From positions 4,750 through 68,749 of the forward strand of contig JAHCSE010000018.1 in the NCBI GenBank assembly GCA_018609195.1: a stretch of 64,000 nucleotides of DNA. Reading direction: 5' to 3'. Position numbers and translations under genes: made by a program. Of this stretch, positions 3,213-21,452 are shown one piece after another. Within the stretch, counting starts at the first letter, position 1; the number at the start of each line of letters is the position of its first letter. Source of the stretch: Patescibacteria group bacterium (GTDB lineage: Bacteria; Patescibacteriota; Minisyncoccia; Minisyncoccales; RBG-13-36-15). A model generated the notes under the pieces. It was not told where the DNA came from. It made no database searches and saw only the letters and a list, made by a program, of their open reading frames with translations.

Positions 3213-4370
3213 TTAAATTATTTTTTTCTGATTATTCCGATGAACGGCCATTGCTTTTTGCACTCTCTCCTGAGCAATATCTATTGCTGCCTTGCGTGGA
3301 TTTATTCCGTACCTTTCTGCATTTTCTAAAATCATTTTTGTATTTCTTGAAATTTTGCGCTTTATCACTCGGAACATATCTTTTGGGTTATATCCACGGT
3401 ATTCTGCATATGACGAAATGACTCCACCTGCATTTGCAATGATATCCGGGACCACAACAATCCCTCTTTCTTGTAGCTTTTTTTCAATATCATGGGGAAT
3501 GGGAATGTTTGCAGCTTCGATAATGATTTTTGCCTCGACCTTTTTATAATTATCGTTAGTAATTACATTTGGAATAGCAGCAGGAATTAAAATATCAACT
3601 GGTAGTTCAAATATTTCCTCATGTAATAACTTTTTTCCTTCTTTGTATTGGGTGACCGAACCTTTCCTTTTAGCTTCAAGAAGTTTTGGAAAATCTAGCC
3701 CATCCGCATCATAAATCGTACCCTTAATATCAGAAGTAGCGACTACTTTTGCACCCATTTCTCTCAAATATTTTGCCGCAAATTCTCCCACATTACCAAA
3801 ACCCTCGATTGCAATGCGCGCTCCTGCAATATCCATACCAATATGATTGGTTGCAACTTTTGTTGCCTCAGCTACCCCAGATCCCGTACTCCCAAACTCA
3901 TGAGGAATGCCGCATTTTTCACCTGGCTTGCCAAAAATTTTCATACAAAGATTTGCTGGTTTACCAGTGGCTGCGTGCCAATTTCCGTTTGCCTCAACAA
4001 ACCATTGCATCTCACGTTCTCCCAAGTTCATATCTGGTGCCGCAATATATTGCTTTGGGGCAAAGGGTTTGAGTGCTCTCGAAAATGCCTGGACTATTTC
4101 TTTTTTTTCTTCTTCGGAATAACTCTTTGGGTCAAAAACAATACCTGCTTTTGCTCCACCAAAAGGTAACTCTGCTAAGGCATTTTTCCAAGTCATGGTA
4201 CGAGCTAGTGTAAAGATCTCCTCCAGTGTTATATCAGGCGTCATGCGGATTCCTCCCTTTCCAGGACCAAGAGTAGTATTATCTATTACTAAAAAACCTC
4301 GCATGCCGTTTTTTGAATCGTAAACCTCTAAAAGATATTCAGGGCCAAATTTATCCTTTTTAATATTCAT
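3213..4370 (-). CDS. gdh: Glu/Leu/Phe/Val dehydrogenase family (glutamate dehydrogenase-like)
   Basis: GPGKGGIRM catalytic-lysine motif and GFGNVG Rossmann motif. Confidence 0.85.
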   Translation of the reverse strand: MNIKKDKFGPEYLLEVYDSKNGMRGFLVIDNTTLGPGKGGIRMTPDITLEEIFTLARTMTWKNALAELPFGGAKAGIVFDPKSYSEEEKKEIVQAFSRALKPFAPKQYIAAPDMNLGEREMQWFVEANGNWHAATGKPANLCMKIFGKPGEKCGIPHEFGSTGSGVAEATKVATNHIGMDIAGARIAIEGFGNVGEFAAKYLREMGAKVVATSDIKGTIYDADGLDFPKLLEAKRKGSVTQYKEGKKLLHEEIFELPVDILIPAAIPNVITNDNYKKVEAKIIIEAANIPIPHDIEKKLQERGIVVVPDIIANAGGVISSYAEYRGYNPKDMFRVIKRKISRNTKMILENAERYGINPRKAAIDIAQERVQKAMAVHRNNQKKII

Positions 4371-4552
4371 GACAACTTGACCATATCATGTGCATATATA
4401 TTTATCAGTGATTTGTGTCACATAAAGAATTACATGGAAGAACCCTAGTTATAATAGAAGAAAGTACCCGTCACTTCATCTCCTAGGCGGAGTGCTATAG
4501 GATTTTTTGAACAAATTTCTTCCAATCTATCTTTATTTTTGATACTCTTATA

Positions 4553-4948
4553 ATGATGTCTCTGAAAAAACAAAATAAACAAAAGAAAGTTATGGTGTTT
4601 GGAGTGTTTGACGGAATTCATGAGGGGCACAGAAATTTTTTAAAGCAAGCGAAACAATACGGGGATTATCTGCTTGTTGTTGTGGCACCAGACGAAGCTG
4701 TACAGCAATTTAAAAATCGGCTAGCACGTTTCAGCTTACCAGAGAGAATAAACTTTCTGAGCAAAGAGGGGATAGTTGATGAAATAGTAGAGGGGGACAG
4801 GGTTCAATATAGTTGGAAAGTGATAAAGAAGCATCAACCCTCGATCATTGCACTCGGTTATGATCAAGGGGCTATACGCAAAGAATTAGAAGCGATTCGG
4901 TATAGTTTTCCTTTCGCTCTCAAAATAAGCACCATGGATGCCTATTGA
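4553..4948 (+). CDS. cytidylyltransferase-like nucleotidyltransferase (FAD synthetase/RibF-N-like)
   Basis: VFGVFDGIHEGHRNFL (HxGH-type motif) near the N-terminus; 131 aa. Confidence 0.5.
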   Translation: MMSLKKQNKQKKVMVFGVFDGIHEGHRNFLKQAKQYGDYLLVVVAPDEAVQQFKNRLARFSLPERINFLSKEGIVDEIVEGDRVQYSWKVIKKHQPSIIALGYDQGAIRKELEAIRYSFPFALKISTMDAY

Positions 4949-10772: not shown

Positions 10773-10964
10773 ATGGATAAACTCTTAACCATAAAAGAAG
10801 TTGCCAAATATTTAAGAGTCAGCGAGCGTTCAGTCAACCGTTATATTGAATCTGGCCGGCTTAAAGCCTCCAAAATCGGCCAATGGAGAATCAAACAAAG
10901 CGATTTAGAAAAATTTTTAAAAGAAAACTCAAATGACAAAAGAAGGTTTAAGAAAAAGCTATAA
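10773..10964 (+). CDS. excisionase-family helix-turn-helix DNA-binding protein
   Basis: LTIKEVAKYLRVSERSVNRYIESGRLKASKIG matches the excisionase/MerR-like HTH pattern. Confidence 0.7.
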   Translation: MDKLLTIKEVAKYLRVSERSVNRYIESGRLKASKIGQWRIKQSDLEKFLKENSNDKRRFKKKL

Positions 10965-11631
10965 GATAAAAGATTTACCTAAAGTTGAAAGGCCGAGAGA
11001 GAAATTGATTTCAAAAGGCGCCCAAAACCTAAAAGATGAAGAACTTTTAGCTATTTTACTCCGGACCGGCAGGGAAGGTAAGAATGTTTTAGATTTGGCA
11101 AAACAAATTTTAAATAAATTTTCTAAAAAGAGGTTCTTTAAAATGAAATATGAAGATTTAATAAAGATTGATGGAATAGACCAATCTAAGGCTTGTACAA
11201 TTTTAGCCTCTCAGGAATTGATCCAAAGAGCGTTAAAGGTTAGAGACGAAAGTTTACCTCAAATCAAATCGATTCAAGATGTTTTAGCTCAAGCGGTTTA
11301 TATGAGAGATAAAACTCGTGAGCATTTAATGGCAATTTATCTTAATGCCAGAAATGAGATGGTTTACAAAAAGCCAATGTTTGTTGGCACACTTAATGCT
11401 AATCTTGTTCATCCTCGGGAAATTTTTAATGAAGCTCTGAAACAAAATGCAGCTTCAGTCATTCTAGTCCACAACCATCCTTCTGGAAATCCCGAACCTT
11501 CAGAAGACGATTTAGAAATTACCAAAAGGCTAATTGAAGCTGGTAAAATAATGGGCATTGATGTTTTAGACCACATAATTATTGCCAAAAACAAACCTCC
11601 TTTTAGTTTCAAAGAGAAAAAATTGATTTAA
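10933..11631 (+). CDS. radC: RadC-like JAB/MPN domain protein
   Basis: ERPREKL, ELLAILLRTG and HNHPSGNPEPSEDD (JAMM motif). Confidence 0.85.
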   Translation: MTKEGLRKSYKIKDLPKVERPREKLISKGAQNLKDEELLAILLRTGREGKNVLDLAKQILNKFSKKRFFKMKYEDLIKIDGIDQSKACTILASQELIQRALKVRDESLPQIKSIQDVLAQAVYMRDKTREHLMAIYLNARNEMVYKKPMFVGTLNANLVHPREIFNEALKQNAASVILVHNHPSGNPEPSEDDLEITKRLIEAGKIMGIDVLDHIIIAKNKPPFSFKEKKLI

Positions 11632-11635
11632 AATT

Positions 11636-13345
11636 ATGGCAAAGACTAATAAAAAATCAGAGGTTGAAAAATTGAAAGGCGAAGTTGATCGCCTGAAAAA
11701 GGAATTGAAGAAAAGGAAGAAATACGGCTTGGTTTGGGAAGAAAAACCTGAAGAAGTGGTTGAGATGTGCAAAGAAAAACTGCCAGTGCTAAAAGAAGTA
11801 AAAAATAAAGAAATAATCACCGACAAAGACAAGCCGGTAAATTTACTGATTGAAGGCGACAATTATCACGCCCTTTCAGTTTTGAATTATACCCACGCAA
11901 AAAAAGTTGATGTCATTTACATTGATCCACCGTATAACACCGGTAAGCCAAAGGAATTTAAATATAACGATAAGTGGGTAGATCTTAATGATGGGTATAG
12001 ACATAGTAAGTGGGTTGCTTTTATGGAAAAAAGGATGAAGCTGGCTAAAAATTTACTTAAAGATACTGGACTTATTTTTATTTCTATCGATGATAATGAG
12101 TTGGCCCAGTTGAAGTTGTTGATGGACAGACAGCCAGAATTATTTGGAGAAAATAATAAAATAGGAATTTTTACGATAGAGACTCCGAATCAAACCTCCG
12201 ATGTTAATAAAATAAAGAACTCCGATTTCTTATTAGTATATGGGAAAACATCACAAGCGGCGTTTAAGTTGTTATTTAAAAAACAGGTTGCGAGGTGTAC
12301 TACAGGAAAGGAGAACCAAACACAACCAATTATAGAATTCCCCAAGGGGTTAAAAGTGGTTGGTGTGTCAGATGGGATATATAAAGATACGAGAAAAACA
12401 AATGGTATGGAAGATATTTTTTTAATAAAAGGACCAATAATCGTAAGAAACGGGAAACTGGTTCAATCTATCAGATTAAAAGCCAGATGGGCCAATCCAA
12501 ATGATATGAAACGATTTATAAATAAATTTATCAGCAAAAGCAAGCATCCAATATTTAATAAATTTGGCAAAGAACTTTTAGATCTATATCTGCTAGGCGA
12601 TCGTTTTCAGCCACAAATGGTAAAGCGTGGCTTTGATATACCCCATACAATCTTGTTAGGATTTACTCAAAAAGGAGGAGATTTATTAAAAAATATTTTA
12701 CACAAAGAAACATTACAATATCCCAAGCACCCATCATTTATAAAATATTTATTAAGCATTTCAATAGACAAAAACTCCATCGTGTTAGATTTTATGGCTG
12801 GCTCTGGCACTACTGGCCATGCGGTTTTGGAACTTAATAAAGAAGATGATGGCAATCGCCAATTTATTCTTTGTACCAATAACGAAAACAATATTTGTAC
12901 CGATGTTTGTTATCCAAGGATTAAAAAAGTTATTAGAGGATACAAAAATTCGAAAGGGGAAAAGGTGGAAGGATTAGGCGGTAACCTAAAATATTTCAAA
13001 ACTAATTTTGTCGATGCTGAACCGACCGATAAAAATAAAATTAAACTTACACAGCAAGCTACGGAGATGCTTTGTATTAGAGAAGAAACTTTTGAAAAAG
13101 TTTTAGACAAAAAGGATTTTAAAATTTTCAAAAATAATAATCATTATACCGGCATAATTTTTGACCAATTAGCAATCCCAGGATTTAAAAAGACAATTAA
13201 AAACATCAAGGGTAAGTTTAGCGTCTATGTTTTTTCGCTAAGCGACGAAACTTTTGACGAAGAATTCGCTGATATTAAACAAAAAGTAAAATTATCTCCT
13301 ATACCAGAAGCGATTTTAAGGGTGTATAGGAGAATATTTAGATAG
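11636..13345 (+). CDS. mod: Type III-like (beta-class) N6-adenine/N4-cytosine DNA methyltransferase (Mod)
   Basis: DVIYIDPPYNTG (motif IV) precedes VLDFMAGSGTTGHA (motif I). Gene is 4 nt after radC and 4 nt before the next gene. Confidence 0.85.
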   Translation: MAKTNKKSEVEKLKGEVDRLKKELKKRKKYGLVWEEKPEEVVEMCKEKLPVLKEVKNKEIITDKDKPVNLLIEGDNYHALSVLNYTHAKKVDVIYIDPPYNTGKPKEFKYNDKWVDLNDGYRHSKWVAFMEKRMKLAKNLLKDTGLIFISIDDNELAQLKLLMDRQPELFGENNKIGIFTIETPNQTSDVNKIKNSDFLLVYGKTSQAAFKLLFKKQVARCTTGKENQTQPIIEFPKGLKVVGVSDGIYKDTRKTNGMEDIFLIKGPIIVRNGKLVQSIRLKARWANPNDMKRFINKFISKSKHPIFNKFGKELLDLYLLGDRFQPQMVKRGFDIPHTILLGFTQKGGDLLKNILHKETLQYPKHPSFIKYLLSISIDKNSIVLDFMAGSGTTGHAVLELNKEDDGNRQFILCTNNENNICTDVCYPRIKKVIRGYKNSKGEKVEGLGGNLKYFKTNFVDAEPTDKNKIKLTQQATEMLCIREETFEKVLDKKDFKIFKNNNHYTGIIFDQLAIPGFKKTIKNIKGKFSVYVFSLSDETFDEEFADIKQKVKLSPIPEAILRVYRRIFR

Positions 13346-13349
13346 AAAT

Positions 13350-16109
13350 ATGGCTAATCAAAGTCTATACCAAAGAGGATCGAAATGGAGAAAATGGGAT
13401 TTACAAATCCATTGCCCTGATGATGTTCTCAATAATCAGTTTAATGGTAAGACTTCCGATGAGAAATGGGAGAGTTATATTGCGAAAATAGAAAGAACAG
13501 ATTTAGAAGGTGTGGGGTTAACCAATTATTTTTGTATAAATGGGTACGAAAAAATTTTGAGTTATAAAAAGAAGGGTAGATTGGATAAGATAAAAATTAT
13601 TTTGTCAAATATAGAATTTCGGTTATCGCAGCCGAATCGTAGTGGAGAATACATAAATTTACATGTTATTTTTTCTGACTCGGTAAGTATAAAGAAAATT
13701 AAAGATTTTCTTGCTAGGCTTCCTATCATTGGCACGGATTCTAAAAATAGAAGTCTATTCTGTACAGAAAATGATTTACAGCAAATTGGTTATGATAAGG
13801 CACTAGTTGAATTTAGTGAATTACGAAAAAAATTAAAAGAAAACTTTGTTCATAGAAAAGATTATCTTATTGCTGGAGTTTCAAGAGGTTATGGTTCTTT
13901 TAGACCTTCACCGAATGAAGGTAGGGGAGCATCGTTAGCAATCGAAATTGATAAAATATCCGATTTCTTTTTTGGGAAAATAGAAGATGTTAACTTTTTT
14001 TTAGGTATTGGAAGATATAAAAATGCAAAGCCAAAACCAGTTGTACGAGTTTCTGATGCTCATAGACTAGAAAAGATTGGCTCTGAATTTTCTTGGATTA
14101 AAGCTGACCCCACTTTTGAAGGATTGAAACAAATAATTTACGAACCGGAATTAAGAACTTCTTTAGGAGAAAGACCAGAGCTTTACTTATATCCACAAAT
14201 TATTTCGGTTCAATTGAAAGGGGTCGAAAGATACCAAGGCCAACAGGACATCGAAGATTTCCCGCCTATAAATCTCGGAAAACAAATTTTTTTCAGCTCC
14301 AATTTAACAAATATTGTTGGTCCTCGGGCTTCTGGAAAAACTGTTCTTGTAGAATTACTTAATTATCCATTTAATCAACATCAAAAAGAGGCTAAAAAAG
14401 ATGAGAAATTACCTTTAATTCGCTTCTTATCAAAGAGATTCCCGGGTTTAACTGTTGAGATTTTATATCAGCAAGGAGAAAAAGAAATAGATGGAATAAA
14501 GAGAAAGATTGTTGATTTATTAGACCCGTTTTATACACCGCCTTTAACTATGGAATATTGGTCGCAAGGACAAATAGAGCAAGTGGCTAATAAAAAAGAG
14601 AAGTTAGATGAGTACATAAGAAATAGGTTAGAATCAACTCTTCTTTCGAACCTTTCTCTAAAAATTGATGAATTGAAAGAAAATCTAAAAAAATTGCGTG
14701 AAAAATATCTCCGTAAATTCGAGGTAGAGATTGAACAAAAGAAGCTTTTAGCAGAGAAAAAGCAAATTGAAGAATATTTTGAAAAACTAAAAACCAAAGA
14801 GTACAAAGATTTAATCAAGAAAATCAGAGAAAATAGGACAAACAGCCAACTTTTAGATACATTTATCGAAAATATTCAAACAATAATTAAATTTTTAGAA
14901 GAAGCCAATAAACAGTTTAGTTTTATAAGTCTTCCTGATAAGGGTGAACTTTTAAAATTATTTCCCAAGAGCCCTTCAACATCTCAAGAGATTGAGAATT
15001 TTTATAAATTTATTAAGAGTGATTTTGCAACTATCATTAAAAGATTTCCAAGGCTTCAACAGAACATCAGTAGTTCGGAAGAAAGAAAAAGATTAGCAAA
15101 AGAAGCTACGCTACTTAAAAAAGAGTTCCTTGCTTATTGTAAAAAACACGGAGTCAAGATTACACAATTAGAATATGAGAAACGGACAAAAAGATTAGAC
15201 GCTGTAAATCGCCAGTTAAGAGTATTAGAAGCTAAATTAAAGGAGTACGAAGCAGCAAAAGAAACACATAGTCAGTTTGCACAACAGCTTAATAGAAAAT
15301 TAGCCAAATGGGAAGAAGAAAATAATCGGATACTTAAGAAATTTAACAAACTGTCCTCAAAGACCAATGTCAGAGTAGTTTGGGATAACCCCTTTAAAAG
15401 ACTACCGGAATGGATAAAAAAACAATTTTTAGCTAGTGATTCAGTAGCCAAACCACTAATAAGAAAATATTTTTATATTTTCTCTCCTGTTAAAGAAAAT
15501 TTTATTGAAGAAATTGTAAAAGAATTAGTAGAAAGTAAGAAGTACTCGATAGAAAAGATTATTGAAAATTTGAACAATAAAGAACGACCGGCATTAGTGA
15601 AAAGTGGTGGAAAACAGGAAAATTTAAAATGGTTTTTTCAACGAGATGAAACAGAAATTATGCGCAAGGATTTAATTATGAGACTTCAAGAATATGCCGA
15701 GAGAGGAATTAATCTTATTCAATATAAAGGGAAAATTCTTGGTAAAGACAGCATGTCCTTCGGTGAACGCTGTGGTACTCTTATTGAACTTATTTTACAA
15801 TCAGGAGACCACCCACTTATTATTGATCAGCCTGAGGAACATCTTGACTCAAAGTTTATTGCAGACCGAGTTGTGAATATTATTAGAGGGCAAAAAATAA
15901 AGCGCCAAATAATCATATGTACACATAATGCAAATATTGTAGTATTGGGCGATTCAGAATTAGTTACAGTACTTTCTGCGGATAGACAGGGTACAGATGC
16001 CTATCAAGGTTCTTTGGAAAATTCAAAGCTTAGAAAGCAAATTTATGATGTTTTAGAAGGTGGTCCCGAGGCATTTAAGAAAAGAGAACAAAAATATGGT
16101 TTTAAATAA
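13350..16109 (+). CDS. PHP phosphoesterase domain fused to Rad50/SbcC-like coiled-coil ABC ATPase
   Basis: N-terminus has WDLQIHCPDD, NLHVIF and VSDAHRLE (PHP His/Asp motifs). Walker A GPRASGKT starts at aa 324. A long K/E-rich coiled-coil follows, then signature-like SFGERCG, Walker B LIIDQPEEHLD (D826) and H-loop CTHNANI. Confidence 0.75.
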   Translation: MANQSLYQRGSKWRKWDLQIHCPDDVLNNQFNGKTSDEKWESYIAKIERTDLEGVGLTNYFCINGYEKILSYKKKGRLDKIKIILSNIEFRLSQPNRSGEYINLHVIFSDSVSIKKIKDFLARLPIIGTDSKNRSLFCTENDLQQIGYDKALVEFSELRKKLKENFVHRKDYLIAGVSRGYGSFRPSPNEGRGASLAIEIDKISDFFFGKIEDVNFFLGIGRYKNAKPKPVVRVSDAHRLEKIGSEFSWIKADPTFEGLKQIIYEPELRTSLGERPELYLYPQIISVQLKGVERYQGQQDIEDFPPINLGKQIFFSSNLTNIVGPRASGKTVLVELLNYPFNQHQKEAKKDEKLPLIRFLSKRFPGLTVEILYQQGEKEIDGIKRKIVDLLDPFYTPPLTMEYWSQGQIEQVANKKEKLDEYIRNRLESTLLSNLSLKIDELKENLKKLREKYLRKFEVEIEQKKLLAEKKQIEEYFEKLKTKEYKDLIKKIRENRTNSQLLDTFIENIQTIIKFLEEANKQFSFISLPDKGELLKLFPKSPSTSQEIENFYKFIKSDFATIIKRFPRLQQNISSSEERKRLAKEATLLKKEFLAYCKKHGVKITQLEYEKRTKRLDAVNRQLRVLEAKLKEYEAAKETHSQFAQQLNRKLAKWEEENNRILKKFNKLSSKTNVRVVWDNPFKRLPEWIKKQFLASDSVAKPLIRKYFYIFSPVKENFIEEIVKELVESKKYSIEKIIENLNNKERPALVKSGGKQENLKWFFQRDETEIMRKDLIMRLQEYAERGINLIQYKGKILGKDSMSFGERCGTLIELILQSGDHPLIIDQPEEHLDSKFIADRVVNIIRGQKIKRQIIICTHNANIVVLGDSELVTVLSADRQGTDAYQGSLENSKLRKQIYDVLEGGPEAFKKREQKYGFK

Positions 16110-16123
16110 TTTTTAAATCGTTT

Positions 16124-18352
16124 ATGCGACTAAAAATTTATCAAGAAAACGCAATAGAGGAATTATTAGAGAAAGCCAAGAAACTTTTAGGTTATTCTGG
16201 CGAGAAAAAGCTTGTTTTTAAGGCGCCGACAGGTTCAGGAAAAACAATAATGATGGCAGAATTTTTGAAACAACTGGTTGATGATAGAGAAATAAGGCAA
16301 AACCTTACTTTTATTTGGACGGCGCCAAGACAACTCCATATTCAAAGTAGAGCTAAGTTAGAAAATTATTTTGAAGAAAGCCGAGCGTTAAAATGCTCAT
16401 ATTTTGAGGATTTAGATGACAGGAAAATCGGCGAGAATGAAACTTTGTTTTTTAATTGGGAGAGCATAAACAGAGCTGATAATGTCTATATTCGCGATAA
16501 TGAGCAGGATTTTAATTTATCCAAAGTACTGGAAAGAACGAAAGAAGAGGGTAGAGAAATAATCTTGATTATTGATGAAGCCCATCATCACGCAACAAGC
16601 GAAATTTCTCAAGGATTGATTCAGATGATTGGACCAAAGTTGACGATTGATGTTTCCGCAACGCCGGCTATCATTGATCCTGACGCCGAAAAAGTAAATG
16701 TTCATTTGGAAGAAGTAAAAAGGGAAGGAATGATTAAAAAGGCAGTGGTCTTGAATGAAGAGTTTGTCAATCTTTTGAAAAGAGGAAAGATCGAATCTGA
16801 TTTAAGTGGCAGTAGTGAAGAATTGGTTATTGATGCGGCATTGAAAAAACAAAAAGGATTATTAAAAGCATTTCAAAAAGAGAAGGCAAAAATTAATCCA
16901 TTAATTTTGATTCAACTTCCAGACAGGATTGGACAGCTTGAAGATATAATGAAAGATAGGGTGATTAGAATTTTAAAAGATAAATATAAAATCTCAATCG
17001 AAAATGGCAAGTTAGCAATTTGGCTTTCAGGAGAACATATTAATAAAGAAGATGTTGAGAAAAATGACAGCGAAGTAGAGGTTTTAATTTTCAAGCAGGC
17101 GATTGCTTTAGGTTGGGATTGCCCTCGCGCGCAGATTTTAGTTTTGTTTAGACAATGGCACAGCCCAATATTTTCTATTCAAACAGTGGGTAGAATTATG
17201 AGAATGCCGGAACCAATAAAAGGACATTATGAAAATGATATTTTGAACTACAGCTATGTATATACCAACTTGAGCGATATAGAAATTAAAGAAGATATTG
17301 CTCGCGATTATATTACTATTTACACAAGCAAGAGACGACCTGATTATAAGCCAATAAATTTACTATCTTGTTATTCAAAACGATATCGTGAGAAAACAAG
17401 ATTATCGCCGCTTTTTATAGAGTTGTTTTTGAAGGAGACGAAAAGTTATGGGCTAAAAAAGAAAATAGATACGAAGGCGAAGAAATTGAATATAAAGGTT
17501 TTTAATGATTGGAAAGCTGAAAATATTGATTTATTAGCGGGGAAAACAATCGCTGGCGATAAAGCAATTAAAGTAAGTGGGTTTGATCTACAGAGATTGT
17601 TTGATTTTTTTGTAAGAAATAGTTTGAGAGAGGGCTCTGTTTCATTTTATCCAGAAGACAGGTCGGTTGGTCGTGTTAAAGAAGCAATTTATAAATTTTT
17701 TGAAACAGAATTCAAAATGAAGCGAGGCGAGGGAGAAGATGAGACCGCTCAGATTGTTTTAAGCGATAAAAATATTCAACAATTTGTTAATGTAATTGAT
17801 AAGACTAAAGAAGAATATCAGAAGGAAGTAGTTAAACGCGAACCAGAAATTATTCCTCTTGAAAATTGGGACATGCCAGAATCTTTAACTTTTGGTAGTG
17901 ATTATAAAAAAGAGGAGAGAAAAAAGAGTGTAATGCAGCCGTTTTACAGTGATAATAGATGGAAAACAGAAAAAGTATTCATTGAGTTTTTGGAAAAATC
18001 AGAGAATATTGAATGGTGGTTTAAAAATGGGGATCGAGACAAAATATTTTTCGCTGTGTCATATGATAATGGCGAGCAAAAACCTTTTTACGTTGATTTT
18101 ATCGTTAAGATAAAAGACGGAAGGATTGGCTTATTTGATACCAAGACGGGAATTACATTGCGAGATGCTAAACCGAAAATTGATGGTTTGTATAAGTATA
18201 TTCGAACGCAAAACAAAAAAGGCAAAAAACTTTTTGGTGGCATAGTTACTAACACTGACCAAAGAAATTATCGCGGAAGATGGATTTATTTTGATAAAAA
18301 TTCTAAAGAATTAAGAAACAATTTCAGTAACTGGCAAATTTTAGAATTATAA
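16124..18352 (+). CDS. res: Type III restriction enzyme Res-like helicase-nuclease
   Basis: FKAPTGSGKT (motif I) and IIDEAHH (motif II). C-terminal FYVDFIV..GLFDTKTG is PD-(D/E)XK-like. Confidence 0.8.
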   Translation: MRLKIYQENAIEELLEKAKKLLGYSGEKKLVFKAPTGSGKTIMMAEFLKQLVDDREIRQNLTFIWTAPRQLHIQSRAKLENYFEESRALKCSYFEDLDDRKIGENETLFFNWESINRADNVYIRDNEQDFNLSKVLERTKEEGREIILIIDEAHHHATSEISQGLIQMIGPKLTIDVSATPAIIDPDAEKVNVHLEEVKREGMIKKAVVLNEEFVNLLKRGKIESDLSGSSEELVIDAALKKQKGLLKAFQKEKAKINPLILIQLPDRIGQLEDIMKDRVIRILKDKYKISIENGKLAIWLSGEHINKEDVEKNDSEVEVLIFKQAIALGWDCPRAQILVLFRQWHSPIFSIQTVGRIMRMPEPIKGHYENDILNYSYVYTNLSDIEIKEDIARDYITIYTSKRRPDYKPINLLSCYSKRYREKTRLSPLFIELFLKETKSYGLKKKIDTKAKKLNIKVFNDWKAENIDLLAGKTIAGDKAIKVSGFDLQRLFDFFVRNSLREGSVSFYPEDRSVGRVKEAIYKFFETEFKMKRGEGEDETAQIVLSDKNIQQFVNVIDKTKEEYQKEVVKREPEIIPLENWDMPESLTFGSDYKKEERKKSVMQPFYSDNRWKTEKVFIEFLEKSENIEWWFKNGDRDKIFFAVSYDNGEQKPFYVDFIVKIKDGRIGLFDTKTGITLRDAKPKIDGLYKYIRTQNKKGKKLFGGIVTNTDQRNYRGRWIYFDKNSKELRNNFSNWQILEL

Positions 18353-18453: not shown

Positions 18454-18888
18454 ATGGCAAAATCAAATCACAATGCCAAGGGATGGCCTCGAGATAGCTA
18501 CACCGGCCCCGGCGGCGGACTATATACCGACCCAGGGGGAGGGCTTTATACCGGTCCTGGCGGCGGAGCGTATACTGGACCCGGCGGCGGTCTTTACACA
18601 GGGCCTGGAGGAGGTTTGTACACTGGGCCAGGTGGCGGATTATATACCGGACCGGGTGGTGGCCTCTACACTGGCCCCGGTGGTGGATTATCTACGGGTC
18701 CGGGAGGAAGTCTTTATACAGGCCCAGGTGGAGGGCTGTACACTGGACCCGGTGGGGGTCTTTATACTGGACCATGCGAAGAACCTTACTATAGCAATTG
18801 GCCGCCTAGGGAAGTTTTTCTCAAACACTTAAAGGAGCTTGGTATGGATGATATATACCAGCTTCTCAAAGATAGTTGGGGTTTATAA
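18454..18888 (+). CDS. Gly/Tyr-rich octapeptide-repeat protein with small alpha-helical C-terminal domain
   Basis: 15-aa head, 11.5 x (Y-T-G-P-G-G-G-L), 37-aa tail CEEPYYSNWPPREVFLKHLKELGMDDIYQLLKDSWGL. The repeat peptide is conserved only in this frame. Confidence 0.6.
   Translation: MAKSNHNAKGWPRDSYTGPGGGLYTDPGGGLYTGPGGGAYTGPGGGLYTGPGGGLYTGPGGGLYTGPGGGLYTGPGGGLSTGPGGSLYTGPGGGLYTGPGGGLYTGPCEEPYYSNWPPREVFLKHLKELGMDDIYQLLKDSWGL
18499..18774 (+). repeat. 11.5 tandem 24-nt repeats (coding)
   Basis: Units differ mostly at third codon positions (e.g. ggc/ggt/gga/ggg, ctt/ttg/tta/ctc/ctg). Confidence 0.9.
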
Positions 18889-19168
18889 AAAATACTTAAT
18901 TTACTATGGCAAGAAAACGAAAAGCAGACCTGGAAAAAATTGGAAGTTGAATCTGTGGAAGTTTGACTCCCACAGACTCTTCTAATTATTTGAATCAGTT
19001 TTAAATCAATCAATGACAGGCAAGTTGATTAAATGAGTATATACAAGCAAAAACCCCACACTACAGCAAAGCTGAGTACGGGGCAGGCTTTTAGAACACC
19101 CTGAAGTATGCCTCGCGGAGTTTACCCCGTATCAAATTTATTCTGATGCGGGGCTCGGCAACTACAGG

Positions 19169-19243
19169 GCAAGAAAACAAAAACTTCAAGAATTATTCGA
19201 AAGCGTTTTAAATAAAGCATTTAAAGGAGAATTGGTAGAATAA
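19169..19243 (+). pseudogene. possible remnant of a restriction-modification specificity (HsdS-like) gene C-terminus
   Basis: Frame ending at TAA 19241-19243 reads ..ARKQKLQELFESVLNKAFKGELVE*. This resembles the conserved C-terminal helix of S subunits. No start codon or upstream domain is present. Confidence 0.35.
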
Positions 19244-19251
19244 AAAGAAAT

Positions 19252-19884
19252 ATGTTAGTTTTTATTGACGAGTCTGGAGATCCAGGATTAAAAATAGAAA
19301 AAGGATCTAGTCGATATTTCACGGTATCGTTGGTTATATTTGAGGAGAGAGATGAGGCCTTGGCTTGCGATCAGAGAATCAATCTTTTGAGAAAAGAATT
19401 AGGCTGGGAGCCAAATAGCGAATTCCATTTTAAAAGAAACTCCGATAAGGTAAGGCGGGCTTTTTTACAGGCGGTGGCTCCATATAATTTTTTCTATTAT
19501 GGAATTGTTATTAATAAAGACCCCAAAAAGCTTTGGGGTGAGGGTTTTAGAGATAAAAAATCTTTTTATAAATATACTTGTGGTTTAGTATTTGAAAATG
19601 CAAAAGAGAAGTTAGAAAGCGCAATCATCATAATTGATAAAAGCGGAAATTTAGATTTTAGAAGACAGTTGGCAAAATATTTACGAAAGAGAATGAATGA
19701 AAGAGATAAGAAATTAATTAGAAAAGTAAAAATGCAACGATCGAGTGGGAATAATTTATTGCAGTTAGCGGATTATGTTGCGGGTGTGATAAATAGATCT
19801 ATCCAAAAAGGGAAGAAATATGCAGAGGAATACAGAAAAATCATAGCGCATAGAGAAATTTATGTTCAAATTTGGCCAAAATAA
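19252..19884 (+). CDS. DUF3800 domain protein
   Basis: MLVFIDESGDPG N-terminus and C-terminal LLQLADYVAG, typical of DUF3800. Confidence 0.8.
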   Translation: MLVFIDESGDPGLKIEKGSSRYFTVSLVIFEERDEALACDQRINLLRKELGWEPNSEFHFKRNSDKVRRAFLQAVAPYNFFYYGIVINKDPKKLWGEGFRDKKSFYKYTCGLVFENAKEKLESAIIIIDKSGNLDFRRQLAKYLRKRMNERDKKLIRKVKMQRSSGNNLLQLADYVAGVINRSIQKGKKYAEEYRKIIAHREIYVQIWPK

Positions 19885-20042
19885 GAACCTTGCCTTCGGC
19901 AGAACCTTGATTCCTTTGGAATTAAGAACCTCACCTTCGATGAGAACCTTGTTTTCTTGTTTCACTCGAAAATAAAACTTCCGAGCCTATCCCTTTCGGG
20001 AACGCGGCGATAAACGCCACAGTTCAGCTCGGAAGCAATTCC
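19885..20042 (-). ncRNA. candidate structured sRNA convergent on DUF3800 (three-way junction + AGGTTCT/hairpin repeats)
   Basis: Minus-strand TTGACA (20078-20073), 18 nt, TAATAT (20054-20049). Then CUUCCGAGC..GCUCGGAAG closes two hairpins (GUGGCG/CGCCGC, UCCC-GAAA-GGGA) followed by UUUUAUUUU. After that come 4 x AGGUUCU separated by small hairpins. Confidence 0.4.
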
Positions 20043-20165
20043 ATTTCTATATTAGCAAATTTCAAGAAGGGTTGTCAATACTCTAACTTAGTTCTTGAAA
20101 CCCTCCTTTATAGTTTCTCATTTGTCTTATGAATAACTCGTCTTTATTAATTGAATCTCCAAATC

Positions 20166-21452
20166 ATGAAAGAAGAAAATAAGCAAAAAGCTGAGAAAAT
20201 TTTTTCTATTTCTGATTATATTAAAATTGTAAACCAGGGCTTGAAAGATTTTAGAGCAAAAATTATAGGAGAAATTAGCGAGGTTAGTTTTGGTCCCACG
20301 GGCCATGTCTATTTTTCCCTAAAAGACGAAAAAGATGGAAGTATAATAAAATGTATAATTTGGAAATCCAGATATAATATTTATGGCATTGAATTAAAAG
20401 AGGGGCTTAAAATTATTGCTTCCGGGTATCCTGAAATATATCCGCTATCAGGAAGGCTATCTTTTATAGCCGAAGTCATTGAATATGCCGGAGAAGGGAC
20501 TTTGAAAAAAGAGTATGAAAAATTAAAGAAAAAATTAACCACAGAGGGGCTTTTTGAAGAATCTAGAAAGCGGCCAATTCCAAAATATCCGCAGAAAGTC
20601 GGAATGATTACATCACGACAAGGGGCGGTTCTTGCTGATTTTTTAAATAACTTAGGGAGGTTTGGATTTAAAGTTAAAATGATTGATTCTCGAGTAGAAG
20701 GGCAAGCTGCTATTGCCGATTTATTGCTTTCAATTAAAACGTTTAAAAAAGAAGACATAGAAGTATTGGTAATTATGCGCGGGGGAGGTTCTTTAGAATC
20801 AATGCTGGCATTTAATAATGAATTATTGGCTAGGGAAATAGCTAATTTTCCAGTCCCGGTAATTGCGGCAATCGGTCACCATAAAGATGTTCCCCTTGCA
20901 GCATTAGCGGCTGATGTAATGGTTTCTACGCCAAGCATTGCGGCAACCGTTCTTAGCGAGTCGTGGGAACAAGCAGCTTTACTATTAGAGGAATACGAAA
21001 GAGATATTATTAGTTCTTATGAGGATGTATTGGAAAACGCCGATTCATTAATAAATCAATCGGTAGATACAATTCGTGGAATAAATAATTTAATTTTTGA
21101 TAAATACAGAGAGATTGAAACCTCGCTAAAGATTTCTTTTCAAGGATTTAAGAATGCTCTCCAGAATTGTAAAATTAATTTAAAAAGCTCATGGAGAAAA
21201 TCCATATTTGGATTTAAATCATTAGTATCAATAATCAATCAGCAATTAGAGCACTCGGATAAAATTGTTTATCTTCGTAATCCAGAAACCCAACTTAAAC
21301 TTGGGTACAGTATTGCACGATGTAATGGTAGATTGATTAGAAGTATACGAAATACTAAAATAGGAGAAGATGTAGATATCCGTGTAGTGGATGGAACAAT
21401 TATTTCTAAAGTAAAAAATATTAGTAAAATTAATAAAAAGCAAAATGCCTAA
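20166..21452 (+). CDS. xseA: exodeoxyribonuclease VII large subunit
   Basis: N-terminal OB-fold region, IMRGGGSLE motif, long C-terminal helical region. TTG 20151 is an alternative start. Confidence 0.85.
   Translation: MKEENKQKAEKIFSISDYIKIVNQGLKDFRAKIIGEISEVSFGPTGHVYFSLKDEKDGSIIKCIIWKSRYNIYGIELKEGLKIIASGYPEIYPLSGRLSFIAEVIEYAGEGTLKKEYEKLKKKLTTEGLFEESRKRPIPKYPQKVGMITSRQGAVLADFLNNLGRFGFKVKMIDSRVEGQAAIADLLLSIKTFKKEDIEVLVIMRGGGSLESMLAFNNELLAREIANFPVPVIAAIGHHKDVPLAALAADVMVSTPSIAATVLSESWEQAALLLEEYERDIISSYEDVLENADSLINQSVDTIRGINNLIFDKYREIETSLKISFQGFKNALQNCKINLKSSWRKSIFGFKSLVSIINQQLEHSDKIVYLRNPETQLKLGYSIARCNGRLIRSIRNTKIGEDVDIRVVDGTIISKVKNISKINKKQNA

Follow-up and report, generated by a model that had tools for sequence, protein, structure and literature searches.

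A DUF3800 gene with a convergent DUF3800-IX RNA and a lineage-specific AGGUUCU array in a Patescibacteria genome

A DUF3800 gene in a Patescibacteria genome is faced, tail to tail, by a gene for a structured RNA, and between the two lies a short array of AGGUUCU repeats. The locus raises the question of what this RNA is and whether the repeats belong to its function. The sequence-only reading, made from the 64,000-nt stretch of DNA analysed here (the window), had proposed a promoter-driven three-way junction on the minus strand, either one of the DUF3800 RNA motifs of Weinberg and colleagues or a new one, followed by single-stranded heptamers that would titrate a protein in the manner of CsrB or RsmZ. 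Overall, we consider the locus likely to be an unexceptional example of a known cassette with two parts, a DUF3800 gene and a convergent DUF3800-IX RNA that would act as partner of a nuclease, with an array that is private to this lineage.

The RNA convergent on the DUF3800 gene

The cassette in the window consists of the following elements.

19252-19884 (+): DUF3800 gene, 210 aa (PF12686, E = 2e-15)
20049-20078 (-): sigma-70-type promoter of the RNA, matching 10/12 consensus positions
20036-20042 (-): 5' leader GGAAUUG, of which the last G is the first P1 base and the other six bases lie outside the Rfam model
19973-20036 (-): DUF3800-IX core, a three-way junction identified by the RF02968 match, covariation and folding
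20036-20026 with 19987-19977 (-): helix P1, GCUUCCGAGCU with GGCUCGGAAGU
20021-20015 with 20009-20003 (-): helix P2, UGUGGCG with CGCCGCG
20001-19998 with 19993-19990 (-): helix P3, UCCC-GAAA-GGGA (whole arm 20001-19990)
19969-19977 (-): U-tract UUUUAUUUU, directly after P1, its trailing U's belonging to the Rfam model

The sequence-only reading had asked for an Rfam scan, which returned DUF3800-IX (RF02968) as the sole above-threshold match to Rfam 15 in the 64-kb window. It lies on the minus strand at 19973-20036, reaches 58.3 bits where the gathering threshold is 36.8, and spans model positions 1-67 of 67 without truncation, with E = 4.4e-10 for the entire window; no other DUF3800-associated RNA family matched at the locus at E values up to 10. 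The core RNA is DUF3800-IX, an already catalogued family, and the match thus decides for one of the motifs of Weinberg and colleagues and rules out a new one. The ~65-nt three-way junction drawn from the letters alone is present in full length, the Rfam alignment gives back the same helices, and this junction is the minimum-free-energy structure of the window sequence (-33.6 kcal/mol). Its conserved junction segments are GAAC, which together with the adjoining P2-opening UGU makes up GAACUGU, and the UA within GAUAGG.

The promoter, read earlier as TTGACA-18-TAATAT, was borne out as well. A -35 element TTGACA (20078-20073) and a -10 element TAATAT (20054-20049) are separated by an 18-nt spacer, with a TG at 20057-20056 forming an extended -10, and together they are the best promoter-like site within 19000-21000. 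Among 96 distinct homologous loci, 69 carry TTGAC 34-37 nt upstream of the conserved GGAATTG. A DnaA box adjoins the RNA promoter in 42% of loci, and in relatives such as L045 and L048 the putative box reads TTATCCACA.

Both ends of the RNA can be placed provisionally from these signals. GGAAUUG begins 7 nt past the -10 hexamer and is at least 90% conserved at 6/7 positions in 97 distinct homologues, which makes it the probable transcription start, near 20042. The U-tract UUUUAUUUU, which nearly all homologues have at a position overlapping the DUF3800 stop codon, is the presumed tail of an intrinsic terminator and the presumed 3' end of the RNA, with the stem of the three-way junction as the putative terminator stem. 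An RNA made from its own strong sigma-70 promoter would then fold into P1, P2 and P3 and most likely end at P1 plus UUUUAUUUU, near 19969, at a length of ~75 nt. If read-through were substantial, the array would belong to a longer isoform.

The DUF3800 protein and its cassette in homologous loci

The gene on which the RNA converges is, as proposed, a DUF3800 gene on the plus strand opposite a minus-strand RNA. A sequence search of its product against solved structures gave no meaningful match, and only the fold comparison was informative. With an AlphaFold2 model (pLDDT 87.4, pTM 0.87), the best solved matches in Foldseek were RNase HII 1eke (E = 1.5e-4, TM 0.51) and 4py5 (E = 1.9e-3), an RNase H3 bound to an RNA/DNA duplex. 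All 43 sequences compared share residues D6 and E7 (in FIDESGD), D129 and D174 (in LQLADY). In its model the protein has a fold like those of RNase HII and HIII, the D-E-D-D set is intact, and the protein is a predicted nuclease, in agreement with published descriptions of DUF3800 as RNase H2-like (PMC7736814, PMC10910872, PMC12669027). PADLOC gave weak matches to the candidate defence protein PDC-M04A (7e-9) and to retron DUF3800_VII (4e-5). In the window, genes for RadC, an N6/N4 DNA methylase, an SMC-like ATPase and a ResIII helicase lie upstream of the cassette, and xseA, xseB and a gene for an RRM protein lie downstream.

Conservation of the arrangement was examined in ~125 loci, 42 from genomes and 80 from metagenomes, plus the closest relatives found by exact look-up. 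The DUF3800 protein has 1766 database relatives, the best 120 of which are 73-92% identical to it. For the window itself, the nearest relatives and a G+C content of 37% indicate Patescibacteria. Hosts of the collected loci are mostly Patescibacteria and also include Nitrospirota, Thermodesulfobacteriota, Gammaproteobacteria, Planctomycetota, Omnitrophota and Elusimicrobiota; across these host phyla, protein identity in the collected loci is 52-92%, a spread that argues for horizontal transfer of the cassette. In a single-sequence nhmmer search, the RNA was found on the opposite strand directly 3' of the DUF3800 stop in 114/122 loci. The other eight comprise contigs ending at that point and the divergent variants L038-L041, three of which pass the Rfam threshold at 62-66 bits. 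Tested with Rfam itself, 19 of 20 related loci gave a full-length DUF3800-IX match above threshold.

Covariation, the other check proposed along with conservation, was equally clear. In an alignment of 97 distinct copies (A1), 97.7% of cells are paired and 19 of the 22 pairs have changed on both sides; 0/500 shuffles did as well, and sliding the partners left at most 53% paired. Of the 97 sequences, 87 retain the wobble pair U26.G46 and 93 retain U28.G44, and this fixes the strand as minus, since both would be A.C mismatches on the opposite one. Outside the helices, the junction and loop bases A22, A23, G26, C42, U44 and U57 of the core are invariant.

The two genes are joined very closely. 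Only 1-2 nt separate the end of P1 from the stop codon in 52/114 loci, and the distance is at most 39 nt in all except the window, L047 and L097, and in nearly all relatives the U-tract is the complement of the last Lys codon and stop of DUF3800. Because one stretch serves both, the genes meet end to end and move as a unit from phylum to phylum. No conservation across loci was seen ahead of the DUF3800 start codon, so the conserved cassette extends from the ATG to the RNA promoter. We also looked for complementarity to a conserved trans-antisense target in the DUF3800 5' UTR, which is unlikely given that these upstream regions are unconserved. Flanking genes vary between loci and often belong to type III restriction-modification systems or encode helicases; in relatives the cassette adjoins methylase, ResIII or UvrD genes, or sits at unrelated sites such as a glycosyltransferase cluster. 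The cassette behaves as a self-contained insert.

The AGGUUCU array

Between the U-tract and the DUF3800 stop, the window carries additional sequence with the following features.

19885-19968 (-): lineage-specific 84-nt insertion with the AGGUUCU array
19949-43, 19931-25, 19907-01 and 19890-84 (-): four exact copies of AGGTTCT, numbered 1 to 4
19924-19950 (-): predicted imperfect hairpin A, copies 1 and 2 pairing around CUCAUC-GAA-GGUGAG (-9.2 kcal/mol alone)
19910-19922 (-): hairpin AUUCC-AAA-GGAAU, between copies 2 and 3
19876-19908 (-): predicted terminator-like hairpin C followed by AUUUUGG, copies 3 and 4 pairing around UGCC-GAA-GGCA

The array itself had been described accurately: four AGGUUCU copies alternate with three small hairpins, all of which exist, and end at the stop codon, copy 4 sharing base 19884 with the DUF3800 TAA. 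Although Tandem Repeats Finder reported nothing in this region and the word itself is not enriched (14 copies of AGGTTCT in the 64-kb window versus ~10 expected), the cluster is not due to chance, because nowhere else in the window does any 7-mer occur four times within 70 nt, and 0/200 shuffles contained such a place.

The insertion is flanked by a 7-nt direct repeat, TTATTTT (19975-19969 and 19884-19878), and lengthens the gap from P1 to the stop to 92 nt. Its array is absent from 112/114 measured loci, including relatives with 86-92% identical proteins; in the relatives at 92, 90, 88, 87 and 86% identity, GGAAGUUUUAUUUU runs straight into the stop or is followed by a short unrelated spacer. 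None of 130 collected loci has two AGGTTCT copies downstream of the DUF3800 gene, and the single pair in L067 sits elsewhere. A scan of viral contigs for AGGTTCT-N(8-20)-AGGTTCT gave 120 unrelated matches and was uninformative. Only L047 (85% protein identity, gap 86 nt) has a part of the array in common with the window, namely the distal unit GAAACAAGGTTCTGCCGAAGGCAGATTCTTATTTTGG, with an alignment score of 44 versus 16.9 +/- 3.3 for shuffled sequence. The L047 unit forms an 11-position stem with one U.U mismatch (-12.6 kcal/mol), then AUUUU, and looks like a typical intrinsic terminator. Hairpin C of the window is its homologue, with a tail that overlaps the DUF3800 stop and last two codons; at -6.8 kcal/mol it is weaker as a terminator than the L047 version. 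As a whole, the window array looks as if two further units had been added to the L047 state. At this site L065, L069, L088 and L097 carry short insertions of unrelated sequence (in the last, a 59-nt gap), and those of L065 and L069 are GC-rich hairpins followed by U-runs.

Two origins of the array from the core RNA were considered and rejected. A decayed second copy of the RNA left no second partial Rfam match at E values up to 10. Amplification of P3 was suggested by a resemblance seen by eye between the array units and P3 plus UAGG of the core (UUCU-GCC-GAA-GGC-AAGG against UUCCC-GAAA-GGGA-UAGG); the likeness is statistically unsupported, with a score of 19 versus 15.4 +/- 2.8 (p = 0.12), and for the L047 unit p = 0.73.

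The heptamers had been read as single-stranded, which predicted folding contradicts. AGGUUCU is a wobble quasi-palindrome, so copies 1 and 2, and likewise copies 3 and 4, are predicted to pair with each other around the small hairpins, both in the minimum-free-energy structure and in the ensemble; the first of these hairpins extends to the 6 bp of CUCAUC-GAA-GGUGAG. The predicted unpaired probability of the heptamer bases is at most 0.15, except for the central U of each copy and the first A of copy 4 (0.56), and forcing the heptamers open raises the free energy from -19.6 to -8.6 kcal/mol, at a cost of ~11 kcal/mol. Hairpin A has no homologue in other loci, and the hairpin at 19908-19883 followed by AUUUU is weak and bulged; a pattern scan for terminators flagged the first hairpin, at 19945-19929, instead. 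Compared with shuffles, the minus-strand fold of the array lacks significance (z = -1.35). The plus-strand fold reaches -20.6 kcal/mol with z = -3.05, 1/200 shuffles being as stable, and in it the middle hairpin lengthens to 9 bp, since the A.C mismatch of the minus strand becomes a G.U pair. The three small hairpins differ in stem sequence and all still pair, which hints at selection for structure.

These observations bear on several readings of the array. That it is a set of CsrB/RsmZ-style sites titrating DUF3800 or another RNA-binding protein, on an RNA that runs past the U-tract, draws on the four exact copies within 66 nt, their alternation with hairpins that keep pairing, an RRM-type RNA-binding protein encoded 2 kb away, and the resemblance to P3. 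We regard this reading as very improbable, as the array is unconserved, an outcome that the sequence-only reading had itself named as refuting, lies past the stem and U-tract at which the family RNA presumably ends, presents its heptamers paired, holds no GGA-in-loop motif, folds no better than shuffles and is not significantly similar to the core. Equally improbable is a gained 3' domain, in which a ~165-nt read-through isoform would bind extra DUF3800 or another protein through P3-like hairpins and AGGUUCU; the only hint of it is the pairing kept by the three differing stems, and if true, it would alter the dosage or regulation of the cassette. The stable plus-strand fold and 9-bp middle hairpin, at the end of a DUF3800 gene otherwise without a visible terminator, could instead mark a structured 3' UTR or terminator of the DUF3800 mRNA (4 x AGAACCU plus hairpins). 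This too is unlikely, given that the first hairpin and all heptamer pairs need G.U pairs available only on the minus strand, that no U-tract directly follows any plus-strand hairpin, and that conservation is missing. A coding function can be set aside almost entirely: a 66-aa minus-strand ORF at 19765-19965 has a GTG start, and spacings of 18 and 24 nt hold the first three heptamers in frame as (K/E)-V-L, but the fourth copy is out of frame, the nearest Shine-Dalgarno-like GGAAG is not free but lies inside P1, the frame runs antisense through the conserved DUF3800 C-terminus, and the segment is missing in relatives; we rejected it. Far more weight goes to a neutral by-product of slippage or illegitimate recombination in the U-rich tail, functionless on both strands, which we hold to be a serious if doubtful possibility. 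The TTATTTT repeats flanking the insertion, its patchy occurrence in the window and, in rudimentary form, in L047 rather than in closer relatives, the unrelated insertions at the same site and the non-significant minus-strand fold all suit it. Against it stand the preserved pairing of the three hairpins and the GC-rich hairpins with U-runs of L065 and L069, which suggest repeated selection for extra terminators.

The core RNA could also act purely as a cis-antisense, either by transcriptional interference or by forming a duplex for RNase III with the DUF3800 mRNA at its 3' end, after the manner of convergent type I toxin-antitoxin pairs. The two genes abut convergently with almost no exception, the RNA is driven by a strong promoter of its own, and no space is left for an mRNA terminator ahead of the RNA gene, so that this gene also lies antisense to the DUF3800 transcript at its 3' end. 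As the whole explanation, however, we think antisense action rather unlikely: complementarity alone would account neither for the strong compensatory covariation nor for the invariant junction and loop bases, which argue that the fold itself matters.

A proposed role and comparison with known systems

Under the preferred reading, a nuclease with its RNA partner, the conserved fold of the RNA would make it the cognate partner of the RNase HII-like enzyme, which it would either restrain or direct, and the pair may constitute a mobile defence or addiction-type module. The array would be a private insertion into the U-tract, common in rudimentary form only to L047, that grew to three units by local amplification of one terminator-like hairpin together with the AGGUUCU beside it. 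It might at most back up termination or insulate the two convergent transcripts from each other; it is probably no protein-binding platform, because the insertion is seen only in this genome. In a Legionella Tn-seq study, a strain-specific DUF3800 gene scored as essential, alongside antitoxins (PMC7811196). By analogy, such essentiality would fit an addiction module, in which the harmful partner could be either one.

Relative to DUF3800-IX in Rfam, the window copy has the same three-way junction, the same GAACUGU and GAUAGG bases, the trailing U-run and the adjacency to DUF3800; its core is identical in kind, with nothing that differs. This is a re-discovery of a textbook member of the family and not of a new RNA class. 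What sets the copy apart is the 84-nt insertion of 4 x AGGUUCU past the U-tract, which is absent from the family. The GGAAUUG leader, the overlap of U-tract and stop codon, and the frequent DnaA box by the -35 element in relatives are features that the Rfam model does not contain. DUF3800-IX is one of eleven unrelated DUF3800-associated RNA structures, several of them followed by terminators, that were described with no functional hypothesis offered (PMC5737381). The other members of that report (I to XI, drum and skipping-rope) are likewise structured and tied to one protein domain, some with terminators, and presumably all play the same role alongside DUF3800, although their structures are unrelated (PMC5737381). 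Our literature search for later functional work on DUF3800 RNAs, drum, skipping-rope or PDC-M04 found none beyond the 2017 description, and the role of DUF3800-associated RNAs is a niche question standing since then. The cassette offers experimental handles on it: a tail-to-tail arrangement in at least seven phyla, a D-E-D-D RNase HII-like protein, a GGAAUUG 5' end and the DnaA box (42%).

The likeness to CsrB and RsmZ, which led to the titration proposal, is superficial and consists of a short motif repeated among small hairpins in a promoter-driven non-coding region. Csr/Rsm sponges carry GGA in their hairpin loops and are conserved together with their CsrA/RsmA partner. In the window, AGGUUCU contains no GGA, the loops read GAA, AAA and GAA, and the motif, which is predicted to be paired, is unconserved and lies beyond the presumed terminator, so the proposed sponge function was not supported.

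Compact, mobile pairs of a protein gene and an RNA gene are also known from type III toxin-antitoxin systems (ToxIN) and from convergent type I systems (txpA/RatA, bsrG/SR4). The convergent 3' overlap resembles the Bacillus type I pairs, and an RNA restraining a nuclease would resemble type III. In type III systems the antitoxin consists of tandem repeats that precede the toxin gene on its own strand and that the toxin cleaves, and type I toxins are small membrane peptides. Here, by contrast, a 210-aa RNase H-like enzyme is paired with a single three-way junction RNA, and toxicity is a candidate property only. Measured against ToxI, the RNA is single-copy, convergent and 3' of the gene, and the tandem units of the array are not copies of it (p = 0.12).

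DUF3800 nucleases turn up beside retrons and beside Cas12a2/a3 and Cas13 systems. Type VII retrons are defence-type modules in which, likewise, an RNase H2-like DUF3800 protein acts with a non-coding nucleic acid of its own (PMC7736814). Among the ORFs examined around our locus, none has a reverse-transcriptase domain. Moreover, the DUF3800 proteins of the retron clade reportedly lack the Q of the QxxD motif, whereas the window protein keeps it (LQLAD).

5′ leader and shared 3′ end of the RNA gene

The DUF3800-IX RNA is preceded by a heptamer that the Rfam model largely leaves out: directly 5′ of P1 lies GGAAUUG, six of whose seven positions are at least 90% conserved among 97 homologues, and the model takes in only its last G, the other bases falling outside. 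Transcription probably begins at GGAAUUG, and the heptamer is likely to serve the RNA as a functional 5′ tail.

20036-20042, minus strand: GGAAUUG leader, at the same position in 97 homologues
19882-19884: DUF3800 stop codon
19765-19965, minus strand: 66-aa antisense ORF, with a GTG start inside the insertion that carries the AGGUUCU copies

At the opposite end, compared across 114 loci, the DUF3800 and RNA genes overlap tail to tail in most relatives, where the last Lys codon and the TAA of DUF3800 encode the U-tract of the RNA and the gap at the stop codon is just 1-2 nt. The DUF3800 mRNA of most relatives has no space there for a terminator of its own. Within the insertion of the window, AGGTTCT copies 1-3 are in frame in the 66-aa antisense ORF (spacings of 18 and 24 nt), each encoding (K/E)-V-L. 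Since this ORF is unconserved and lacks a free ribosome-binding site, it is probably spurious.

Surroundings of the DUF3800 gene

Across 95 distinct loci, no common promoter or Shine-Dalgarno sequence was found in the 60 nt before the DUF3800 ATG (about 19190-19251 in the window), a segment that in many copies is simply A/T-rich. Expression of DUF3800 may depend on read-through from the upstream neighbour, whatever that is. Immediately upstream of the cassette, the window holds a run of genes resembling a defence island (10933-18352, plus strand), and a comparable methylase/ResIII neighbourhood was found again in relatives.

10933-11631, plus strand: RadC
11636-13345, plus strand: N6/N4 DNA methylase
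13350-16109, plus strand: SMC_N-like ATPase, 919 aa
16124-18352, plus strand: ResIII helicase
18454-18888, plus strand: 144-aa GPGGGLYT-repeat ORF, located after the ResIII helicase gene and before DUF3800

The last of these is made up of GPGGGLYT repeated in tandem about 11 times and a short C-terminal tail, and Pfam and PADLOC searches returned no match to it. One relative, L254, encodes an additional DUF3800 paralogue of 212 aa (3921-4559), 2.4 kb from the first; an Rfam search gave no RNA match alongside it.

DnaA boxes beside the RNA promoter

A DnaA box, defined as TTATCCACA with at most one mismatch and counted in both orientations, lies just upstream of the -35 element of the DUF3800-IX promoter at 40 of 96 distinct loci, against a background rate of 3.6% in 100-nt windows. 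The window itself has no DnaA box at this promoter.

44-54 nt before the GGAATTG of the RNA, forward: DnaA box, e.g. L045, L048, L064, L075, L127
44-54 nt before the GGAATTG of the RNA, reverse: DnaA box, e.g. L006, L029, L069

The box is exact at 21 of the 40 loci; all loci together (467 kb) contain 34 exact boxes, at least 21 of them at this promoter-adjacent spot. The arrangement appeared to be restricted to Patescibacteria-type loci.
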